Positions 10,745 through 57,183 of a DNA stretch of 64,000 nucleotides are shown in pieces; the stretch's first letter is position 1; each line of letters starts with the position of its first letter. The notes under the pieces were generated by a model. It searched no databases. It was not told the DNA's origin and saw only the letters and a list, made by a program, of their open reading frames with translations. Source of the stretch: Euglena gracilis (taxonomy: Eukaryota); the NCBI GenBank assembly GCA_039621445.1, contig CP154954.1:15333805-15397804 (forward strand), in the 5' to 3' direction. The translations under genes and the position numbers were made by a program.

Positions 10745-11110
10745 CAGGGCTGGATAGAGGTAGAGGTAGAGGTCAAAGTCCTCTACCTCTATCTCACCCA
10801 CCTCTACCTCTACCTCCACCTCCATGTGGCCACAAAAGGCTCCAAATTTGGCAAATTAGCATCTCAAATGAGAAAAAATATCCGGATGGGTGGTTTCAAA
10901 AATTGCCATAAGAGATTTGTGACAAGAATGGCCAATTTCTGATTTTTTCCATAAAATTGCCTTTGTTCGGCATAAATTTTCTTTGATAAGCCACTTCCCT
11001 TAGAAGTTTGACATTGAGGTGACATAGAGGGATGGTAGAGGTAGAGGTGACCTCTACCTCTACCACTACCTCTACCTCTACCTCTATCCCTCTACCTCTA
11101 TCCAACCCTG
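10745..11110. mobile_element. TIR element with (GAGGTA)/(TACCTC) subterminal palindromes
   Basis: CAGGGCTGGATAGAGGTAGAGG...CCTCTACCTCTATCCAACCCTG; no clear TSD. Confidence 0.7.
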
Positions 11111-11169
11111 CTTGTCCTCTTTTCGGACATACGTAAGTGCGGTGAGCCGGCACGCAAACCCGTCCTGAA

Positions 11170-11510
11170 TCCAAAAATCAGCAAATTCCACCACAAAAAA
11201 CGAAGAGATCCAACAACAAACACAAACCGTCACCGCTGTCAAGGACTCACATGTGCAACACCTTCTCCTCACCACGTGCCTCACCACCTCCAACGTATTG
11301 CGAGCAACATATGTATCTGGCATGAGAGACCAATACACAAAGGACATCTTAATCACCCCATTGAATAAACCTTGAATGTAGAACTCACTGATGAGGCGAA
11401 AACACAATTGTTCCTTCCAACGAGCGAAGGTGATTTTGGATACAGAGACCCCACAAAACAGTGGGCCCCAATGCGATTGGCAGCAGTCAAAGAATACATG
11501 GCCACTTCTT
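11170..11510 (+). pseudogene. Decayed fragment of a second CRE-like RT (thumb region)
   Basis: KDSHVQHLLLTTCLTTSNVLRA and TQLFLPTSEGDFGYRDP...MRLAAV parallel PQSHVQFTLLRFCLSACKVNDLLRA and LQVSLAIRCGGLGISDP...ARLSQV of the neighbouring element. Confidence 0.7.
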
Positions 11511-11841
11511 TGTGGGGGGTGTCTTTGGTGGTGTCATGCAGGATTCGCCGAATGAGGTCAATTCCCTTGCCTGTCCATCCACTCCATGGGTGTGTTACTG
11601 CAGGGATCAGTTTCCATCCAACCCTTGAGCATCGTTGTTCACATTTGCTGATTTTTTTGGGTCTTCTGCTTGCTTGAGGATTGCCTTGGCTTCTTCATGC
11701 GTTGTTACGTTTTCACTGAGACGAGGAGGCGTGAGGACGGACGGACGGACGGATGGACGGACGGACGGCTAGAGAAAATTGCTTTCATCTGGACGGACGG
11801 CTGGACAGCGTGCATTTTGGTCTTGAAGCTCAGATTCCCAA

Positions 11842-12109
11842 AAACGTCTCTTTTGGCCCTCGCCACAAGAGGAACCCCCTTGTGACTCCCTGTGCCGCCA
11901 CAGGTCGCGGGTACATTATACTGTGGGTGTAATGTACAAAGGAGCTACTGAGTGATACTTGTTGTGGAGGTCAGTGGTTAGCGGAAGATGAGCAAAGGTC
12001 ACCTTCAATATACATTGGGCGGGGAGGGGGGCGTTTGTACCGCTTTTGCCACAGGATGGCGTGTTTGTGTCGGGTTTTGGCTTTTGTTGTGTTTTGCTTC
12101 TCTGTGCGT
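11842..12109 (-). repeat. Left inverted-repeat arm (antisense copy of the element's 3' terminus)
   Basis: AAACGTCTCTTTTGGCCCTCG...TTTGCTTCTCTG. By eye it differs from the right arm by one 3-nt indel and about four substitutions. Confidence 0.92.
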
Positions 12110-12206
12110 TTTGGTCTGGACGGACGGACGACTAGGTTGGTCTCAAAATCGCGAGAGAGAACTTATTCCTAATCACTGTGGCTTTTCTGCTGCTGTTGGC
12201 TGTATT

Positions 12207-12960
12207 GGGCCTGAAAAGGCCCCCTCAACACCGCCACTGGCCTGAAAAGGCCCTGGGCCTGAAAAGGCCCCCCCTGCTACAGGGCCTGAAAAGGCCCCTT
12301 CAGCCACTGGGCCTGAAAAGGCCCCCCCAGTTTTTGGGCCTGCAAAGGCCCCCCCAGTCTTTGGGCCTGCAAAGGCCCCCCCCTTTGGGCCTGCAAAGGC
12401 CCCCCATCTGCCAACCATTAAGTGGAACTTTCAACTCCAGTGTCTTCTTTTCGGTGTTCTGCATTGCATCCCAAACTTCTGATCAATTGAAGTGGCAAAC
12501 CCAGTTTTCACAGCACATGTTACACCAAAAGCTCTGACACATTTTGCTGCAGTTTTGACTTGACATTGAAAAACATTTTGCCACCCCAACCCCTCAGTGA
12601 CACTTTTTGCAGCAGTTTTGACTTGACATTGAAAAACATTTTGCCACCCCAACCCCTCAGTGACACCGTTTTACCCCAGTGTCCTGCAAAGTCACTGGGC
12701 TTGCAAAGGCCCCCCTGTGACACCACTTCGGTCTATTGCACCATTTTGACCCAGTGGCCTGCAAAGGCCCTGGGCCTGCAAAGGCCCCCCTCCAACACCA
12801 TTTTGCTCCAGTGGCCTGCAAAGGCCCTGGGCCTGCAAAGGCCCCCCTGTGACACCTTTTTGTCGTGTTGCAGCATTTTGTCCCAGTGGCCTGCAAAGGC
12901 CATGGGCCTGCAAAGGCCCCCCCCCTGACACCATTTTTGCTCTCAGCCTGAAAAGCCCCC
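12207..12960 (+). repeat. Array of GGGCCT-GMAA-AGGCCC hairpin units
   Basis: About 15 intact units (e.g. 12207, 12255, 12282, 12309, 12336, 12363, 12387, 12697, 12772, 12829, 12904) plus degenerate ones. A ~63-bp tandem duplication lies at ~12535-12666. Confidence 0.9.
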
Positions 12961-13049
12961 GACAAACTGGCAAACCATGTTCCTCCACATTTTGGACTGC
13001 AACAGTGGCCCCCCAGCCAGACAGCACATCCACTTTTTGGTCTGCAACA

Positions 13050-16000
13050 ATGGCCCCCCAGCCAGCCAGTTCTGCCGGATTCTACTGGCCTGCAACCTTC
13101 CCACCTCAGCAAAATAAACCGGACAACCCCCAGGTTCCGTCTCCGCTGACCGGAAGAAACCACCCAACGTCGGCCAAACAAATAAAAGTGCTGGTGCCAT
13201 ACGTTTCTGCGAAAGACAGCACACAGCCTACCCTACCACCATCGGGAGGGGCAGGCCGAGGTCGGTCTTTACTGACCTGCGGGGACATTGAGAGTAACCC
13301 CGGGCCTCCTAGAACCCCACCATCTGTTCCGGGTGAAGATTTGACATGGCGCCAGCATCACAAACCTCAACCACTCCTACTGCACCGCCGCCCGCAGAGC
13401 ACCCATCGGTGTCGGGTGAGGACGTTGACATGGCGCCATTGGAAAGGGGATCTTGGTTCCCAAATCTGCCGGGTCCATTGTTCTTTGGCCAACAAGGCCT
13501 CCCCTCAATGTGCTCCACGGTCATCATGGAGAACCCAATTGGCACACAAGGACCAGGACCCTTCCCCCCGTCAGATGTTGGGGCCATTTGGATGCAAGCA
13601 AATCAGGCGACGCCCTTCCTGAACTTCTCCAACCTCCCTTTGGGTGCCAGCTCTTCATCCTCAGTGGCAACAACCGCAGCAGCATCGTCACTAGCCCTCG
13701 CGGGACCCCCACCAACCTCGGTGGCAACAACCGCAGCAGCATCGTCACCAGCCCCAGCCAGACCCCCACCAACCCCCATTGGCCAAAATCACATTGCCGG
13801 GGTTACGCCATTCTCTGCTCCATGCCCACCCTCCCTTCATCCCACTTTTGAGGAAATTTCTTTTGATGATCGGGGCACCCTTGTATACCTGCCGCGTGGA
13901 GCCCTCCTGAATGTCAATCAAACCTACCTGCAATTGTTGAGGCATTTCAACAGGGAACCTGGCTGGGAAACCCTGCACGCCTTGTGGGCCTTCCCCAAAG
14001 CGGTGCTCTGTCCTTTGCAGCGTGGCGGGCGATCGAACTGGGCGATGTTGGGGAGAAAAATTGCAGAACGAGCTCGCCTGTATCTCACCCGTCCTGTGTT
14101 TGATTCTTGGTTGGACTCCAGTCTCCCACAAAAGCAACAAGGCAGACAGACAAGGCAAAAAACATCACTCGCTGCCAAGGCCACTGAAGAACGGTTCCTT
14201 TCCCGCATTGAAAGCCTTGTTGCCCACGGGGCCATTTCAAAAGCCTGCCGAGAGCTCACCTCTGAGGGGGTTCAGAACAGCAATGACCCAAAAGTGATTC
14301 AAAGGCTGTGTGACCTTCACCCACCAGAGCCTCCACCGCGCATCCCGGTGTCCGACCCTTCCCAAACGATCACCTTTCCTTCGGACCCAGAAAGCACAAA
14401 AGAACGATTGCAAAATTTGCGCAAAGCCATATTCGGGTTCCCAAAGGAATCCGCACCGGGTCCCTCTGGCCTGAGACCTGACCACCTCAAGGAGGGGCTT
14501 GTGGAGATGACCTCCTCGAAGGGCTTGATACCTTCATCTGTCGGGCAATTACAAACGGTGTTCACCCCGGCATGGCCCCAATTCTTTCCTCAGCCAGGTT
14601 GACACCTCTGCGAAAACAGAACAAACAAACAGCAATGGAAGAGGATGCTTTTGGAAACCTTGTGGAGAACACGGTGTGTGATGAAGACACTCGCCCAATC
14701 GCAGCAGGTGAAACCCTTCGCCGATTGGTTGGCAAATGCCTCATGCGTCATCCAACAGTGGTGAACGTTTTGAAAGAACTGAGTCCTCCACAATGTGGCG
14801 TTGGTGTGCCGAATGCTTGTCCACTGATCGCAATGGGAATCTAACAAATGGTGGACACTTTGCACTCAGACAGAGACAATCGCTGGGGGCTGCTTCAAGT
14901 GGATTTCAGGAATGCCTTCAACTCTTTGTCACGGGAAAAAATCCTGCAATCCATCCGTAGACAATGCCCAGAAGTGTGCCCTTGGCTGGATTCGTGCTAC
15001 GCCCAACACAGCAAGCTGTATTGTGGAAACCATTGTCTGCCTTCCCAGAGGGGGGCTCAGCAAGGCGACCCATGTGGACCAGCAGCTTTCGCCTGGGGAG
15101 TGCAAGACCTTTGTGAGGGCCTCTCACCGTTGGTCGAATGGCAGGGATGGTACTTGGATGACGCCCATCTGCTGGGATCGCCAGCCCAACTGCACAATGC
15201 CCTTGCCTTCCTGATTCGCGAGGCAGCCACGCTTGGGTTGGCCGTAAACCCTGCAAAATGTCGATTGTGGGGACCAGCGTTCACATCAACAGAAGGCATC
15301 CCTTGCATTCCCCCTGGCACGCCACACGACAGCCCCTTACATCAAATACCACTGACCGCCTTTGTTGCTGGTTCTGGTTTGAAAGTTTTGGGGGTCCCTG
15401 TCCACCACCTCCAAGATGACCGCTTCTGTGACGAAGTTTGGAATAAGCGCATTGCAGACATCCGACGTTCTTGCACAGTACTTCAGCACCTACCTCAATC
15501 GCATGTGCAATTCACCTTGCTTCGTTTTTGTTTATCTGCTTGCAAAGTGAATGACCTCTTGCGCGCCTGCAAAATCACCTCTGCAACAGCGGCATGCAAG
15601 ACATTGTCGGGAATTATTCGGGAAACATTCAGTGGCATGGTCGGCTCCCCTTGCACTCCAGAAGAATGGTTGCAAGTTTCCCTGGCCATCAGATGCGGTG
15701 GACTGGGGATCTCGGATCCACTATTTCAACGTGTGCCAGCTAGATTGTCTCAAGTGGTGGACTTCTGTCGAAGAGCTCCCTCTGTCTTGGGCCTGCCCGC
15801 TGCCTTGGACATCCTTCCCAAAGACACTGATGATTGTTTACGGACAGCCCTCAATGAACTTGGTCAAATAGCCCCACTGCCACAATGGGCCACTGACAAA
15901 AATTTGATCCCTCAGGCACAGTCTCCACACAATTCACAACGTTGGTGGAATCAGCAGAGCATGCTTGCCCGCCAGAAAACACTTCGGGACACATTGAATG

Positions 16001-16770
16001 GACCTGATGCTGTACGCTTTGCAAGCCAATGCCAACCACACGCTATGGCATGGGCCGCTTTGACACCATCTCAAGGACTCCGCACCCTGTTGCCCACGGC
16101 TGAATTCCGCTGCACACTTCGTTGGTCCCTTGGAATGACTCTCACACCAATGGAATCCGATCCCAACCTCTGTCCCAAATGCTTTGGACAATCAGATTTT
16201 CTCGGACACCACCTCGTTTGCTGCAAATCAAACTTCATCACCCGGCGGCACGGGGCGGTACAAGATTTTCTGACAACCACAACACAGAAGGCAGGATTCA
16301 CAGCCCGTAAAGAACAACGAGCTGATGACCGTTCCCGGCCTGGGGATATCTTCATTCCTCGCTTGGACAGTGATGGACCCGTTGCAGTGGATGTGACAAT
16401 CCGCCACACCCTTGCGCAAAGTCATCCGCTGCGAAGTGCAGAGAGCCTTTCACAATGGCAAACACGTCAGGAGGCTGAAAAGCATGCCAAATATGATGCA
16501 ACATGCCAACGACTGGGCTGGCGGTTGACGCCATTCGTCATGGATTGCTATGGGGGCATGGGACAAGAAGCGCGCTCCTTAATGGCCACCCTCCTCAAGG
16601 CCCTTCTGGGGCAGCGGGAAGGGTGGCAGCGGCGGGCCGCAGAAGCAGACATTTGGCAAGGCCTGTCCTTCACACTTATCAGAGAAATCAGCACACAGCT
16701 CGTTTGGAGCTTGTATTCTTCCAAAGATGAGATCACCCTGTCTTCTGCCCACTCACCCTATTCTGTCTGA
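13050..16770 (+). pseudogene. Retroelement polyprotein: leader - 2A - Pro/Thr-rich spacer - RT - CCHC knuckle - restriction-like endonuclease; 2 frameshifts (~13340, ~14495) and in-frame TAA (14842-14844)
   Basis: Motifs FPKESAPGPSGLRPDHLKE, RPIAAGETLRRLVGK, QCGVG, LQVDFRNAFNSLSR, GAQQGDPCGP, WYLDD, GLKVLGVP, LAIRCGGLGI, CPKC..HLVCC, RRHGAV, RPGDI..AVDVTI, EAEKHAKY and PFVMDCYGGMG occur in the order typical of CRE/SLACS-like elements. ATG 13050 is the candidate start. Confidence 0.9.
13254..13307 (+). other. 2A-like (StopGo) ribosomal skipping peptide GRGRSLLTCGDIESNPG|P
   Basis: Exact D(V/I)ExNPGP consensus, with upstream context close to T2A (EGRGSLLTCGDVEENPGP). Confidence 0.9.
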
Positions 16771-16910
16771 AGGCCTTTGAGCACAAACTCTCAACCAAAT
16801 AACCAACCTTGAAATCTCACCTGCCAAGTTTTTAACCCGTAGTTACCCCCTGAGCTGAGCAGAGCCACACGCCGAGCCAAAGACAAATCCATGGGTCACA
16901 TATCACATAC

Positions 16911-17351
16911 ACACGCAGAGAAGCAAACCACAACAAAAGCCAAAACCCGACACAAACACGCCATCCTGTGGCAAAAGCGGTACAAACGCCCCCCTCCCCG
17001 CCCAATACCATGCCCCCCCCCATATTGTACCCCCCCCCTGGGAGCCATTTTCTGGGGGGGAGGTACATTATGGGGGGGGGTACAATATGGGGGGCGGCCA
17101 AGGTCATGGTCCATGGTGGGGGGGTACCCCGTGGGGGGGGGTACATTATGGGGGGGGGTACAATATGGGGGGGGGGCATGGTATATATTGAAGGTGACCT
17201 TTGCTCATCTTCCGCTAACCACTGACCTCCACAACAAGTATCACTCAGCTCCTTTGTACATTACACCCACAGTATAATGTACCCGCGACCTGTGGCGGCA
17301 CAGGGAGTCACAAGGGGGTTCCTCTTGTGGCGAGGGCCAAAAGAGACGTTT
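16911..17351 (+). repeat. Right inverted-repeat arm / 3' UTR, interrupted by a MITE
   Basis: CAGAGAAGCAAA...CGAGGGCCAAAAGAGACGTTT; reverse complement of the left arm. Confidence 0.92.
17008..17181. mobile_element. TA-flanked MITE (CCATGCCC...GGGCATGG) inserted in the right arm
   Basis: ~30-bp TIRs and TA on both sides; the equivalent empty site is visible in the left arm. Confidence 0.9.
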
Positions 17352-19565
17352 CCCTGGGCCCGGGGCACGGTTTGGGTGAAGCTGTGCTACCCGCCGTGAA
17401 GGTGTCTATTTTTATTTTTATCGCTTTTCTGCTTGTTTTTTTCCCCGACATGTCACATGGCTGAGACCCCTGGCGGGGTTCGTTACAAGCTGGGATTATC
17501 AAGTACAAGTTGTCAAGTTTCAAGTTCAAGTACAACTTATTAGTCCAAGTACTAGAAGCTTTGGTAGGCGCGTGATGGGCCAAACGGATGGAAAAGGCCC
17601 TGTCTCTTCCTCGCCCGTGGATCGATGGCCCGTGCTGACGCACGGGCCGGATGGCCCTATCCGAGGGCTACATTTATAATCCAGCCCCGTCCCCCAGTTC
17701 CAAAAATGTGCATTTTTGTTGGCTGATTTGTTGGCTGGGCTTGGCCGGCCAATTCCCTTGCTTAATTCAATATTGCTTCAACAGCATCCCTCTGAGATAT
17801 GTACCCCCCCCCCCGTAGCTGAGCGCGGCGGCGCGTGCTCACGCACGAGCCTTGTGTGTTGCCGCAAAAATATCAAGCAGCGCAGCTCCACAAAATTCCA
17901 AGGAAATGGGGCGGCGGGGCAGAAAGGGCTCGTGGAACCAAAAAGAGCCCTTTTTTTGAAATTGCTGCCCTCGAAAAACCCTTGCCAGAGCGCGCTAGAG
18001 GGCCTCCAAACCACACCCATTCAGAGATATGCCACCCCCCCTTCGAGAAGTGGCACGGGCCAACATTCGTTGGCAAGCGGCCTTTTTTCCCTGAAAAAAA
18101 CGCGAAATCTGACCCGAGCACGTCCTGGCACACGGGCCGGAGAGCCCTTGCCGAGGGCTGCATTTACCTCCAAAGCGCGAGCTCCCTGGTGCAATTGGGT
18201 CATTGGGGATTAACTCCCTTTTCCTGATCATATCATGCACACCCATTGCGAGATATGAATCCCCCCTTGTGGCTTGGAGGATGGGAAGCACGGTACCACA
18301 TCACCAGAAAATGCCTTTTGAAGGACTCGCCCACCCAAAACGGAGTTTATTTTTGGACGCCACCCTTGAAAACCCCTTCCGGAGCACATCATGGCACCCC
18401 CAAAGCGCACACATTCCAAAGTACGCGTCACCCGGATCACGAAGCACGGTGCCAAAACACCAGAAAATTCAGCAGTGCCGTCTGAGGAATGCACAGGGTC
18501 GGCAAGCCCAAACGGACGGAATTGGAATCACCGCCCTTGAAAACACCGTGCCAGAGCACGTCAGGGCACCCCCACAGCACACACACTGCAAGGTGTGGCT
18601 CCCCCGTCTGGCTTGGAGGACGGGAGGATGGTGCCGCACCAACAAAAAATTCGCTGCTGCCGCTTGAGGGCTACAGAGGGTCGGCCCCTCAAAACGAAGC
18701 TTTTGGAATCACCGCCACTGAAAACCCCCTCACGGTGCACATTGGGGCACTCCCACGGCATTGACTTGCTGGTTCGGTAGCGGGGTGCCGTGGCGCTGAA
18801 AAATTCACCGCTGCCGTTTGAGGGTTCTAGAGGTCGGCCAACCAAAACGGAGCATATTTTTGGCATCGCCACCCTCAAAAACCCCCCGTCCGAGCAAATA
18901 AAAGCGTACAGCCATACAAGCTGAAGACGCTACAGGCGAATTCTGATGAACAAGTGAAGGACAAGGAAGGCAGGTAAAAAAAAAAACGTTTTGTAACTGC
19001 TGCATTGCAATTTTTTGTAACAAAGCGCCTGTTTTTTTTCTGCTACATTGTTGTGTTTTGCAAATGTGTCTCTCAAATTTCCTGTGTGTGAACCATCTGA
19101 AAAGATTTTGCACCAGTGGCCTGAAAAGGCCCTGGGCCAGCAAAGACCATTTTGCAACGAATTGTTTTTTTGACCGGGAATTTGTTCTGGTGATGCGGTG
19201 TATAATTTGGGAAGGATCTGAATGAGGCGTGTGTGTGGTGGGCATTTGTGTGTGGTTTTGTGCTGTGGTTTGTGTGGAGAGGTGGTTGCCAATTTTCCAC
19301 TCGACTTATTTTCCACCACTGGTCAGTTTGGGGCTGTCACAGGTGACCCAATTTGGTGACGGGGGGGGGGGCTGATAGGTGGTGGCCAGTTTGGTGCCAG
19401 GATGTTTGGCCAGTTTGGTGCCACAGGGCCCGGTAAACGCCAGTCAACCCAGGAAAAAGGGTCCAGCGATGGAACATTTTTCGATGTTTGGAGGCTTTTT
19501 TTTGCACAAAGAAATGCGGGAATGAAAAAGTCAAAAACAGTTTCTATTTTTTCTGCCGCGTCTGT

Positions 19566-29573: not shown

Positions 29574-55862
<26,289 letters not shown>

Positions 55863-56790: not shown

Positions 56791-57183
56791 TAAACCCTCC
56801 CCCCAAATAATACCCCCCCCCCAAATAATACCCCCCCCCCTCGGGCTGCTGAAATAATACCCCCCCCCCGGTTTCGGGCCAAAGGCCCGGATTTTTGACC
56901 TGAAAATGTAGTTAAAAATCACAATCTCTTACAACAAATTACAAAAAAAATCGATTTTTCTGGATCATCTGGCCTCCAAAAAGAAATGGTAAATTTCATG
57001 AGAAAGTACAAAAAATGATCCCAAAGGGGCGTTTTGGCGCTATTTTTGCTCCTACGGGACTTCAAAAAAATTTCGAAAATTTTTGGGAAATAATACCCCC
57101 CCCCCAAATAATACCCCCCTCCCTCGGGCCGGGACTCGGGCAAAAAAATAATACCCCGGGGGGGTATTATTTGGGGGGTTTTA
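56791..57183. mobile_element. Second copy of the AAATAATACCCC MITE
   Basis: Shares the core CCGGATTTTTGACCTGAAAATGTAG...; TA at both ends. Confidence 0.85.

Follow-up and report, generated by a model that had tools for sequence, protein, structure and literature searches.

We found that the apparent terminal inverted repeats around a non-LTR retrotransposon of Euglena gracilis probably result from an ordinary insertion pile-up, in which the left arm is a separate 5' truncated antisense copy lying 88 bp upstream of a full-length copy of the same family. Both lie in a stretch of 64,000 nucleotides that was analyzed as a whole (the window), and their features are collected in Table 1. An earlier note on this DNA had proposed a family in which the 5' end repeats the 3' end in antisense. 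That proposal is contradicted by two observations: other copies lack the left arm and have its flanks joined, and each insertion has a target-site duplication (TSD) of its own, one of 13 nt and one of 11 nt. The alternative offered in the same note, a 5' truncated sister copy inserted head to head, is supported by the arm-free joints, the separate TSDs, and the 3'-biased abundance of the family.

The events at the locus may be pictured as follows. A repeated host sequence, here named F, would have been hit twice by one very abundant RLE-type LINE family, each time by ordinary TPRT. One insertion is the full-length sense copy at 12192-17422, whose TSD measures 11 bp; the other, at 11824-12104 and with a TSD of 13 bp, is a 5' truncated antisense copy of 263 nt to which an 18-nt tail is joined. 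Later, a small TA-flanked palindromic element would have entered the right arm, and the full-length copy would then have decayed through two frame breaks and one stop; this is the order of events that we infer. That the mechanism was TPRT is suggested by the TSDs and the 5' truncation, together with an RLE and an RT homologous to those of R2. The pair resembles terminal inverted repeats because the 5' truncated copy keeps the element's 3' end only.

Table 1. Features of the locus, in window coordinates.
Feature	Position	Strand	Remarks
Putative host repeat F, left part (F-left)	11727-11823		GGAC-rich; (GGAC)n at 11735-11768; X1 and X2 contigs join 11808-11820 straight to 12104-12116
Left TSD copy of arm insertion	11811-11823		A at position 4; ends left part of F
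18-nt tail of truncated copy	11824-11841	-	between TSD and conserved 3' end; outside arm homology; missing from empty-site contigs; unique in window
Left arm	11842-12104	-	5' truncated copy, in antisense, of the last 260 nt of the family (= 16916-17351 without the MITE-like insert); missing from contigs of other copies
Putative F segment between insertions	12105-12191		87 nt (88-nt offset); last 11 nt (12181-12191) = left TSD copy of full-length insertion
Right TSD copy of arm insertion	12105-12117		TGCGTTTTGGTCT; single occurrence in empty-site contigs ("both 9")
Full-length RLE-type LINE copy, dead	12192-17422	+	exact 11-nt flanking repeat; joints 12154->17446 and 12189->17446
5' leader	12192-13049	+	tandem repeats: 27-, 63-, 132-, 57/75- and 45-bp units around hairpin-like motif GGGCC-TGMAAA-GGCCC
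Single long ORF, broken at three places	13050-16770	+	frame offset near 13341; 19-nt gap after 14492; TAA at 14842-14844
Candidate 2A motif DIESNPGP	13284-13307	+	context ...RSLLTCGDIESNPGPP; 78 codons past in-frame ATG at 13050
RT core	14869-15270	+	Pfam RVT_1, E = 1.4e-10; RT starts upstream at about 14620 in the 14482-14841 frame
CCHC + RLE	16171-16482	+	CxxC...HxxxC, RRH, E, RPGD, D-x-T, K
Right arm	16916-17351	+	3' UTR part of full-length copy, duplicated in antisense by left arm
Palindromic G/C-run insert	17008-17181		174 bp; terminal inverted repeats of about 31 nt; TA duplicated at 17006-17007/17182-17183
71-nt tail of full-length copy	17352-17422	+	between conserved 3' end and right TSD copy; not common to left arm
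Putative host repeat F, right part (F-right)	17423-17550		right TSD copy (17423-17433), then right part of F

The near-identical inverted arms described in the earlier note are real: 11842-12104 is the reverse complement of 16916-17351. A repeat search within the window recovered them as three mutually collinear pairs, 11842-11946/17247-17351 (105 nt, 100%), 11948-12012/17184-17248 (65 nt, 100%), and 12014-12109/16911-17006 (96 nt, 97%), and found no direct terminal repeats. By length and identity, these repeats are far beyond chance. Paired base by base, the arms are about 99% identical, with two substitutions (12013 and 12092), one 3-nt indel (11945-11947), and the 174-bp insert in the right arm as the only differences. 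An inner boundary, which had been put at 12109/16911, exists, but this pairing moved it to 12104/16916, with three of the next six positions mismatched. The terminal 17-mer of the arm is found at two places only in the window, the two arm ends. As noted before, the element lacks an A-tail; its right arm finishes in ...GAGACGTTT, with no run of A. A fold-back chimera of long reads, or another artefact of assembly, has a negligible chance of explaining this arrangement. Nothing specific speaks for it, and the arms lie 4.8 kb apart, differ by substitutions, an indel, and the insert, and belong to insertions that each have clean TSDs.

The insert had been called a MITE, which would fit its terminal inverted repeats and TA duplication. 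Most family contigs are without it, and 80 contigs cross 12013 in the insert-free form. We presume that it is akin to Stowaway-like MITEs, with which it shares its shortness, its lack of coding sequence, its terminal inverted repeats, and the TA duplication. It differs from them in that the window holds no second copy of it, only similar C/G-run motifs; in the run contigs, any further copies blend with low-complexity G runs.

The TSDs separate the two insertions. The arm insertion is bounded by 13-nt direct repeats matching at 12 of 13 positions, one abutting the inner end of the arm and the other 18 nt past its outer end; this match was equalled in 2 of 2,000 shuffled flank pairs. The full-length insertion is bounded by an exact 11-nt repeat, GCTTTTCTGCT, at 12181-12191 and 17423-17433 (equalled in 4 of 2,000 shuffles). 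No common motif is evident at the two target sites. Outside both arms we found no TSD, the best direct match of the outer flanks being 7 nt, which was equalled in 211 of 2,000 shuffles. The TTCCC that the earlier note had pointed out is indeed present at both ends (11835-11839 and 17350-17354), but in view of this result it does not serve as a TSD. Two other candidates were rejected. One was GAGACG (11720-11725/17343-17348), where the best scored match of those flanks was 6 nt (1,168 of 2,000 shuffles); the other was the pair 11651-11675 and 17414-17438, in which 20 of 25 positions are alike, a divergence too high for a fresh TSD. In L1 twin priming, the inverted segment lies upstream of the sense part and both are enclosed by one TSD pair. 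The present case is similar in having an inverted segment on the 5' side of an inserted LINE, but we rejected twin priming because the inverted piece here is a second copy of the 3' end, with a TSD of its own. Between the conserved 3' ends and the TSDs lie the tails of 18 and 71 nt. The 18-nt tail is possibly a 3' transduction from the flank of the donor, or it may be untemplated. Both tails are left unexplained by two ordinary insertions and count against that reading.

We used contigs from public runs to look at other copies of the site: X1 and X2 are DNA runs of the source organism, and X15 and X16 are RNA runs. Uncovered bins of the RNA runs, and the share of words found in runs whose contigs were not placed, were left out of the evidence. 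The joints come from short contigs (shorter side of 21 to 39 letters) placed at 88% likeness, and the figures given are those of the best-supported joints and loose ends (there are 65 further joints and 1,594 further loose ends). In our reading, held with good confidence jointly with the explanation as a whole, the locus is a copy of the moderately repeated sequence F (11727-12191 plus about 17434-17550). Summed depth climbs from about 2.3k (bin 11482-11722) on entering F-left. Contigs of X1 then pass over the arm: among the joints listed, 11808/09/14/20 are joined to 12104/09/16 at depths of 115.8, 4,357.1, 6,981.9, 218.2, and 1,353.9, which sum to 13,027 and so make up about 98% of the 13,295 recorded at 12158. 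X2 has the same five joints (depths of 998, 2,548, 4,015, 307, and 8,946), and X16 has one of them. Depth at 12155/12158 is 13.3k in X1, compared with 126 to 272k at the tabulated arm positions 12031-12047, and at 12158 every contig reads differently from the window. The window has two insertions with their own duplications, and the arm is absent from other copies, an absence that the earlier note had linked to a chance neighboring insertion.

Contigs also cross the site of the full-length copy, with 12154 joined to 17446 in X1 and X2 and 12189 joined to 17446 in X1. These bear on a different reading, in which the truncated copy inserted into the 5' leader of the LINE itself; 11727-12191 would then be the start of the LINE rather than a separate repeat F, and even so the arm would count as an insertion of its own, outside the architecture of the element. 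We consider this unlikely. In X1, the depth at 12155-12158 is comparable in magnitude to that of the 5' region of the LINE at 13239-13371 (5.8 to 8.7k), and the listed empty-site joints for the full-length copy are shallow in X1/X2 (288/196 and 576, with F-left at 13k), both of which would suit nesting. Against it stand the exact 11-nt repeat around the full-length copy and the contig joints from 12154 and 12189 to 17446, together with one X16 contig, at a depth of 97.9 on both sides, that spans 12155-12158 as well as 17481-17509. Depth at 17481-17509 is 20 to 31k in X1 and 8 to 18k in X2, the same order as that of F-left, and F-left and F-right contig depths are paired (4,357 versus 4,340 in X1, 2,548.2 versus 2,547.7 in X2, and 97.9 versus 97.9 in X16). 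Such equal depth is not expected of a random 3' flank. A loose end at 12188 ("before"; six contigs, X2) likewise argues against nesting.

The same contigs bear on whether there is a genuine family or sub-lineage with inverted termini, in which the antisense 3' segment is part of the transcribed and transposed unit. The near-identity of the arms and the missing A-tail are what such a family might display, but we regard it as very improbable. The arm-free contigs account for nearly all of the X1 depth just inside the arm, the arm has its own TSD, 88 nt of an unrelated repeat lie between the arm and the 5' end that the TSD assigns to the LINE, and the outer flanks are without a TSD. Distant relatives were examined as well. 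A metagenome scan with the family alignment gave 145 stretches that fit the pattern, 24 of which encode a relative; all 24 are distant, with 21 to 42% identity over the segment that aligns best, and their contigs are 1.0 to 4.6 kb long. Nine of the 10 longest loci examined have no inverted repeats, on contigs too short to test the architecture, and the tenth (L021) has only low-complexity CT/AG inverted pairs at its start that are unrelated to the element's ends. Scans of viral contigs, and of prokaryote genome contigs with the protein, gave no relative, and an exact 40-mer of the arm had no match in the genome contigs or the viral contigs.

The preferred reading, two separate insertions, also fits the distribution of the family. 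X1 depth is 1.17 million at 17337 near the 3' end and, with the two arms added together, about 300k at a distance of 72 nt from that end. Over the ORF it is 190 to 310k at tabulated positions 13831 to 15410 and 89 to 237k from 15657 to 16814, and it is lowest in the 5' region given above. This 3'-to-5' fall is a gradient typical of 5' truncation, and the family is very abundant and highly repeated in its host. The earlier note had named abundant short solo arms as another mark of a chance insertion, and we found the 3'-terminal part of the family far more abundant than the 5' part. A second head-to-head junction with other breakpoints (12003 joined to 16455) is present in both DNA runs.

One observation counts against this reading: the arms have two minority variants in common, which would seldom be expected of a random family member. 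At 11914/17279, the window's letter is found in 0 of 42 and 0 of 31 left-arm contigs and in about 0.1% of right-arm depth; at 12042/16978, it accounts for 19% of X1 depth only. These rare variants call for an addition to the explanation, which may be a donor common to both copies, a single event, or gene conversion at a later time. In the one-event version, a single donor RNA population and integration complex would have made two nicks about 100 bp apart and laid down opposite cDNAs. The shared variants would agree with this, as would the opposite orientation of the copies at 88 bp and the near-identity of the arms, whereas 69% of the family contigs in X1 (12,775 of 18,539) are less than 99% alike. 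We nevertheless think it improbable. Each copy has a complete, separate TSD, the differing 3' tails point to different donor transcripts, and the variants need no new mechanism, since they are explained by gene conversion acting across the 5 kb that separate the inverted repeats or by membership of a single young subfamily. There is correspondingly little chance that the copies are not independent, as they would be if, for example, a dimer of the RLE protein with sister RNAs carried out TPRT twice, in opposite directions, on a single visit.

The coding region described in the earlier note, RT followed by CCHC and RLE, was confirmed by Pfam, the family alignment, and a profile match to R2 proteins. 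The full-length copy is dead because of two frame breaks and one stop in its ORF. The 19-nt gap is relative to other copies, with a contig loose end at 14492, and at 14842 all other contigs carry another letter. The leader contains only three ATGs, none of them in frame. Compared with solved structures, the family profile matched R2 proteins best (9nl3, 9dou, 9nl2, and 8gh6; RT E = 6e-12 to 1.6e-08), and a second matched stretch was the C-terminal CCHC and RLE of 9nl3 and 9dou (independent E = 0.03 to 0.04). A PDB search with the single protein gave no match at E <= 1, and the profile search alone gave matches. Invariant columns in 17 aligned sequences are C443, C446, H456, C460, R468, H469, E490, P499, D501, D516, and K546. 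Pfam scanning of all four ORF pieces found RVT_1 alone, with no N-terminal zinc-finger or Myb domain, GIY-YIG, or tyrosine recombinase. The candidate 2A motif, which conforms to the definition D(V/I)ExNPGP of published abstracts, is the sole instance in all six frames of the window and the 24 relative-encoding loci; in this copy, a one-base offset about 35 nt downstream of the motif separates its frame from that of the RT. In X15, which is labeled as a leaf-litter metatranscriptome, ORF contigs are 185 to 555 nt long with up to 19 other letters each; DNA carry-over is possible, so they are not taken as a sign of expression.

Judged by its RT, CCHC, and RLE and by its TPRT footprints (5' truncation and TSDs, with no LTRs), the element is an R2-like, RLE-encoding non-LTR retrotransposon. 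It resembles the R2 group (R2, R4, NeSL/Utopia, HERO, and CRE) in its single ORF, with an RT followed by a CCHC and a PD-(D/E)xK-type endonuclease, and the E. gracilis family further resembles that group in having 5' truncation and TSDs and no A-tail. It differs in that its nearest database relatives are metagenome ORFs at 51 to 54% identity, and in that no N-terminal zinc finger or Myb domain was detected. The sole named homologue is a hypothetical protein of Cymbomonas, and in the Protein Atlas the nearest clusters are eukaryotic, with Streptophyta commonest, which is a lead on host range only. No RNA-gene target lies beside the element: we found no rRNA, snRNA, spliced-leader, or tRNA gene, and Rfam gave nothing at gathering score in the window. 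Rfam hits in 11000-18300 were sub-threshold, miRNA-like, and confined to the palindromic insert and a microsatellite. By the same Rfam search of the window, CRE-type insertion in spliced-leader RNA genes is not encountered here. Penelope-like and DIRS elements are similar in having terminal repeats that may be inverted; in the present case, however, the endonuclease aligns to the R2 RLE and the repeat lies outside the transposed unit.

HERO elements show non-specific insertion behavior, according to the available text of Kojima and Jurka 2015 (PMC4640811), and the two target sites here likewise have no apparent site specificity. The available text of McGurk and Barbash 2018 (PMC5932611) presents two arrangements as common, namely nested insertions of opposite orientation and double insertions whose 5' truncations differ. 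Our locus is similar to those in that one family inserted twice at nearly one place, with distinct 5' truncations and both junction pairs identifiable; it differs from them as that text presents them in that terminal inverted repeats are mimicked, one partner being full length and the other the 3' end only. Sequences of the 2A type are known from the APE-type clades Rex1, Crack, L2, L2A, CR1, and Ingi and from ORF2p-like proteins across kingdoms, as reported in the available text of Odon et al. 2013 (PMC3708506) and a 2026 preprint (PMC13405545). With the elements described there, ours has in common a canonical D(V/I)ExNPGP near the N terminus of an RT polyprotein; it differs in being RLE-type, and the available text of these two sources mentions no RLE-type element.

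These results remove a false lead, as the inverted termini at this locus do not define a new class of retroelement. They provide a worked example of how terminal inverted repeats can be imitated by a full-length LINE with a 5' truncated sister copy in antisense beside it, and they show how public runs, through their empty-site contigs, can decide such cases without a genome assembly. The family itself, RLE-type and R2-like with nearest database relatives at no more than 54% identity, appears to be undescribed. Its candidate 2A motif, canonical in sequence, would place at the ORF head of an RLE-type LINE a feature reported for APE-type LINEs in the text available from PMC3708506 and PMC13405545. 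If the copies did arise together, paired insertion in one visit could seed inverted-terminal structures in RLE LINEs.

The inverted arms proposed by the earlier note are real. A repeat search resolved the inversion into three collinear pairs, of 105 nt (100%), 65 nt (100%) and 96 nt (97%), and base-by-base pairing showed that the left arm, 11842-12104, matches 16916-17351 in reverse complement. The arms differ by two substitutions (12013 and 12092) and one 3-nt indel (11945-47), and identity is lost past 12104/16916, where three of the next six positions mismatch. The right arm contains a 174-bp insert at 17008-17181 that shows a duplicated TA and has terminal inverted repeats of ~31 nt. Taking out this insert and one TA gives back the left-arm sequence; thus, calling it a MITE was fair. 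We also observed C (or G) runs of 8-17 split by short AT-rich words (AAATAATA, GAATAGT, TACAATAT) recurring across the window, an uncommon low-complexity style for this genome.

We then aligned Logan contigs to 11000-18200, using two DNA runs of the source organism from separate studies (X1 and X2) and two RNA-labelled runs (X15 and X16). Just inward of the left arm, at 12155-12158, the depth was only 13.3k in X1, and all contigs differed from the window at 12158. X1 joints directly linked 11808/11809/11814/11820 to 12104/12109/12116, with depths totaling 13,027 among the joints listed. The same five arm-skipping joints were found in X2 and one of them in X16. Therefore, the left and right flanks of the arm are contiguous in other copies. 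The arm and its 18-nt tail (11824-12104) lie between TGCATTTTGGTCT (11811-23) and TGCGTTTTGGTCT (12105-17), a flank match that was reached by 2 of 2000 shuffled flank pairs, and empty-site contigs ("both 9") have this target-site duplication (TSD) stretch once. The arm and its duplication are the classical footprint of a 5'-truncated antisense insertion made through target-primed reverse transcription (TPRT). The suggestion that the 5' end of the LINE is an antisense copy of its 3' end is not supported, as the arm is absent from other copies and has its own TSD. What the arm-skipping joints and separate TSDs support is the alternative in that note, a 5'-truncated sister copy inserted head-to-head.

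The full-length copy has a TSD of its own: GCTTTTCTGCT occurs at 12181-91 and 17423-33, a match reached by 4 of 2000 shuffles. We read the LINE proper as 12192-17422 and the sequence around it (F; 11727-12191 plus 17434-17550) as a third repeat that was hit twice, with the arm outside the LINE and 88 nt of F between them. Contig joints connect 12154 and 12189 to 17446; among the joints listed, these appear for X1 and X2 at low depth, with short sides of 21-26 letters, and are the weak part of this reading. Contig depths on the left and right parts of F agree within each run (4357 versus 4340 in X1, 2548.2 versus 2547.7 in X2). In X16, one contig depth, 97.9, recurs at 12155, 12158, 17481 and 17509 and explains the bin depths on both sides. 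Leftward of 12188, six X2 contigs diverge. If the left part of F were instead the LINE's own leader, the arm would even then be a nested, separate insertion. F is GGAC-rich, with a depth of ~10-30k in the DNA runs, and has no match found in Rfam. Uninterrupted F is the deepest X16 contig, and F may be a transcribed repeat, the RNA label of X16 being only a guess.

We found no composite TSD outside both arms: the outer flanks match directly over 7 nt at best, which 211 of 2000 shuffles reached, and the TTCCC put forward as a TSD candidate is at chance level. A further pair joined head-to-head, at different breakpoints (12003->16455), was present in X1 and X2, which argues for variable, accidental pairings rather than a fixed structure. 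The two arms do share minority letters at 11914/17279 and 12042/16978. At the first pair, the window letter was found in 0/42 (X1) and 0/31 (X2) contigs for the left arm and at ~0.1% of depth for the right arm; at the second, it made up 19% of depth. Two insertions of one young sub-lineage could have produced this sharing, as could gene conversion acting across the 5 kb that separate the inverted repeats. A paired single event is rated lowest because the 3' tails differ (18 versus 71 nt) and each copy has a complete TSD. Our guess is that these tails are 3' transductions from read-through donor transcripts.

The LINE family is very abundant, and its depth gradient (see table) is what mostly 5'-truncated copies would give. 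Solo 3' pieces are thus abundant, contrary to a family with fixed inverted termini. In X15, a leaf-litter metatranscriptome, contigs of 185-555 nt run along the LINE ORF (13118-16865), some with only 1-9 other letters; therefore, as sequence presence only, the LINE host or a close relative is among the nucleic acids of that habitat.

Summed contig depth in X1 and coordinates of features
Feature	Position	X1 depth or remark
Flanking bins	11241-11722	about 2.4k
LINE 5' region	13239-13371	5.8-8.7k
Tabulated ORF positions	13831 to 15410	190-310k
Tabulated ORF positions	15657 to 16814	89-237k
72 nt from end, both arms summed		about 300k
Near 3' end	17337	1.17 million
Flanking bins	17748-18200	0.7-0.9k
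Canonical 2A ribosome-skipping motif, ...RSLLTCGDIESNPGPP	13251-13307	sequence motif
C/G-run low-complexity repeats	32359-32415, 52697-52795, 56795-56839, 17008-17181	

The whole neighborhood is repeat-built. An (ACCTCT)n microsatellite lies at 11050-11100, with inverted copies at 10745-10775, and its bin (11000-11240) is as deep in the DNA runs as the LINE (345k in X1). Directly right of the locus, 17943-18760 holds diverged repeats with a period of ~170-180 bp (families D3, D11, D14 and D15). Of the 27 long ORFs elsewhere in the window, the 10 that we scanned gave nothing in Pfam except a weak C2H2 finger (212-1039).

Three frame pieces of the LINE (13337-14602, 14482-14841 and 14845-16770) could be aligned to full-length relatives that are 1007 and 1016 aa long. 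Pfam identified RVT_1, and the family alignment has invariant columns 3' of the RT (CxxC...HxxxC, RRH, E, RPGD, D-x-T, K). The best solved relatives of the family profile are R2 retrotransposon proteins (9nl3, 9dou, 9nl2 and 8gh6; E = 6e-12 to 1.6e-08), and the second aligned stretch of 9nl3 and 9dou is exactly the CCHC and endonuclease region. These matches bear out the RT, CCHC and RLE coding region first noticed and show the element to be an RLE-type non-LTR retrotransposon. The best database relatives are unnamed metagenome ORFs, at 51-54% identity; of 33 hits, a single one has an organism attached to it, the green alga Cymbomonas.

The first in-frame ATG is at 13050, and the 2A motif follows 78 codons on (context ...LLTCGDIESNPGPP). 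The 2A frame is offset by one base from the RT frame near 13341, a region nearly duplicated, one base longer, at 13404-39. Other copies continue with letters that the window lacks at a 19-nt gap after 14492, and every other contig has a different letter where a TAA starts at 14842. Because of the offset, the gap and the TAA, this copy is dead. Its 5' leader (12192-13070) consists of nested tandem repeats (units of 27, 63, 132, 57/75 and 45 bp) centered on a hairpin-like motif, GGGCC-TGMAAA-GGCCC. Only three ATGs, none in frame, occur in ~860 nt of leader, and a 44-nt leader piece is found again at 19105-19148. An Ala/Ser/Pro-rich stretch in the N-terminal region of the ORF is repeated through a 57-bp tandem duplication (13656-13769, 88% identity).

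The element resembles R2-group LINEs in having RT, CCHC and RLE, in its probable use of TPRT and in lacking an A-tail, as many R2-group elements do. We found no RNA genes at the two target sites and saw no motif common to them. CRE, R2, R4 and NeSL are mostly target-specific, and HERO is largely non-specific (Kojima and Jurka 2015, PMC4640811). 2A motifs have been described by Odon et al. 2013 (PMC3708506) for APE-type LINEs and by a preprint (PMC13405545) for ORF2p-like proteins across kingdoms; in the portions of these two sources that a limited literature search covered, an RLE-type carrier is not mentioned. According to McGurk and Barbash 2018 (PMC5932611), it is common to find nested and double insertions that lie in opposite orientation and have distinct truncations. 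The locus is an ordinary juxtaposition of insertions from a LINE of a known kind, itself apparently undescribed.
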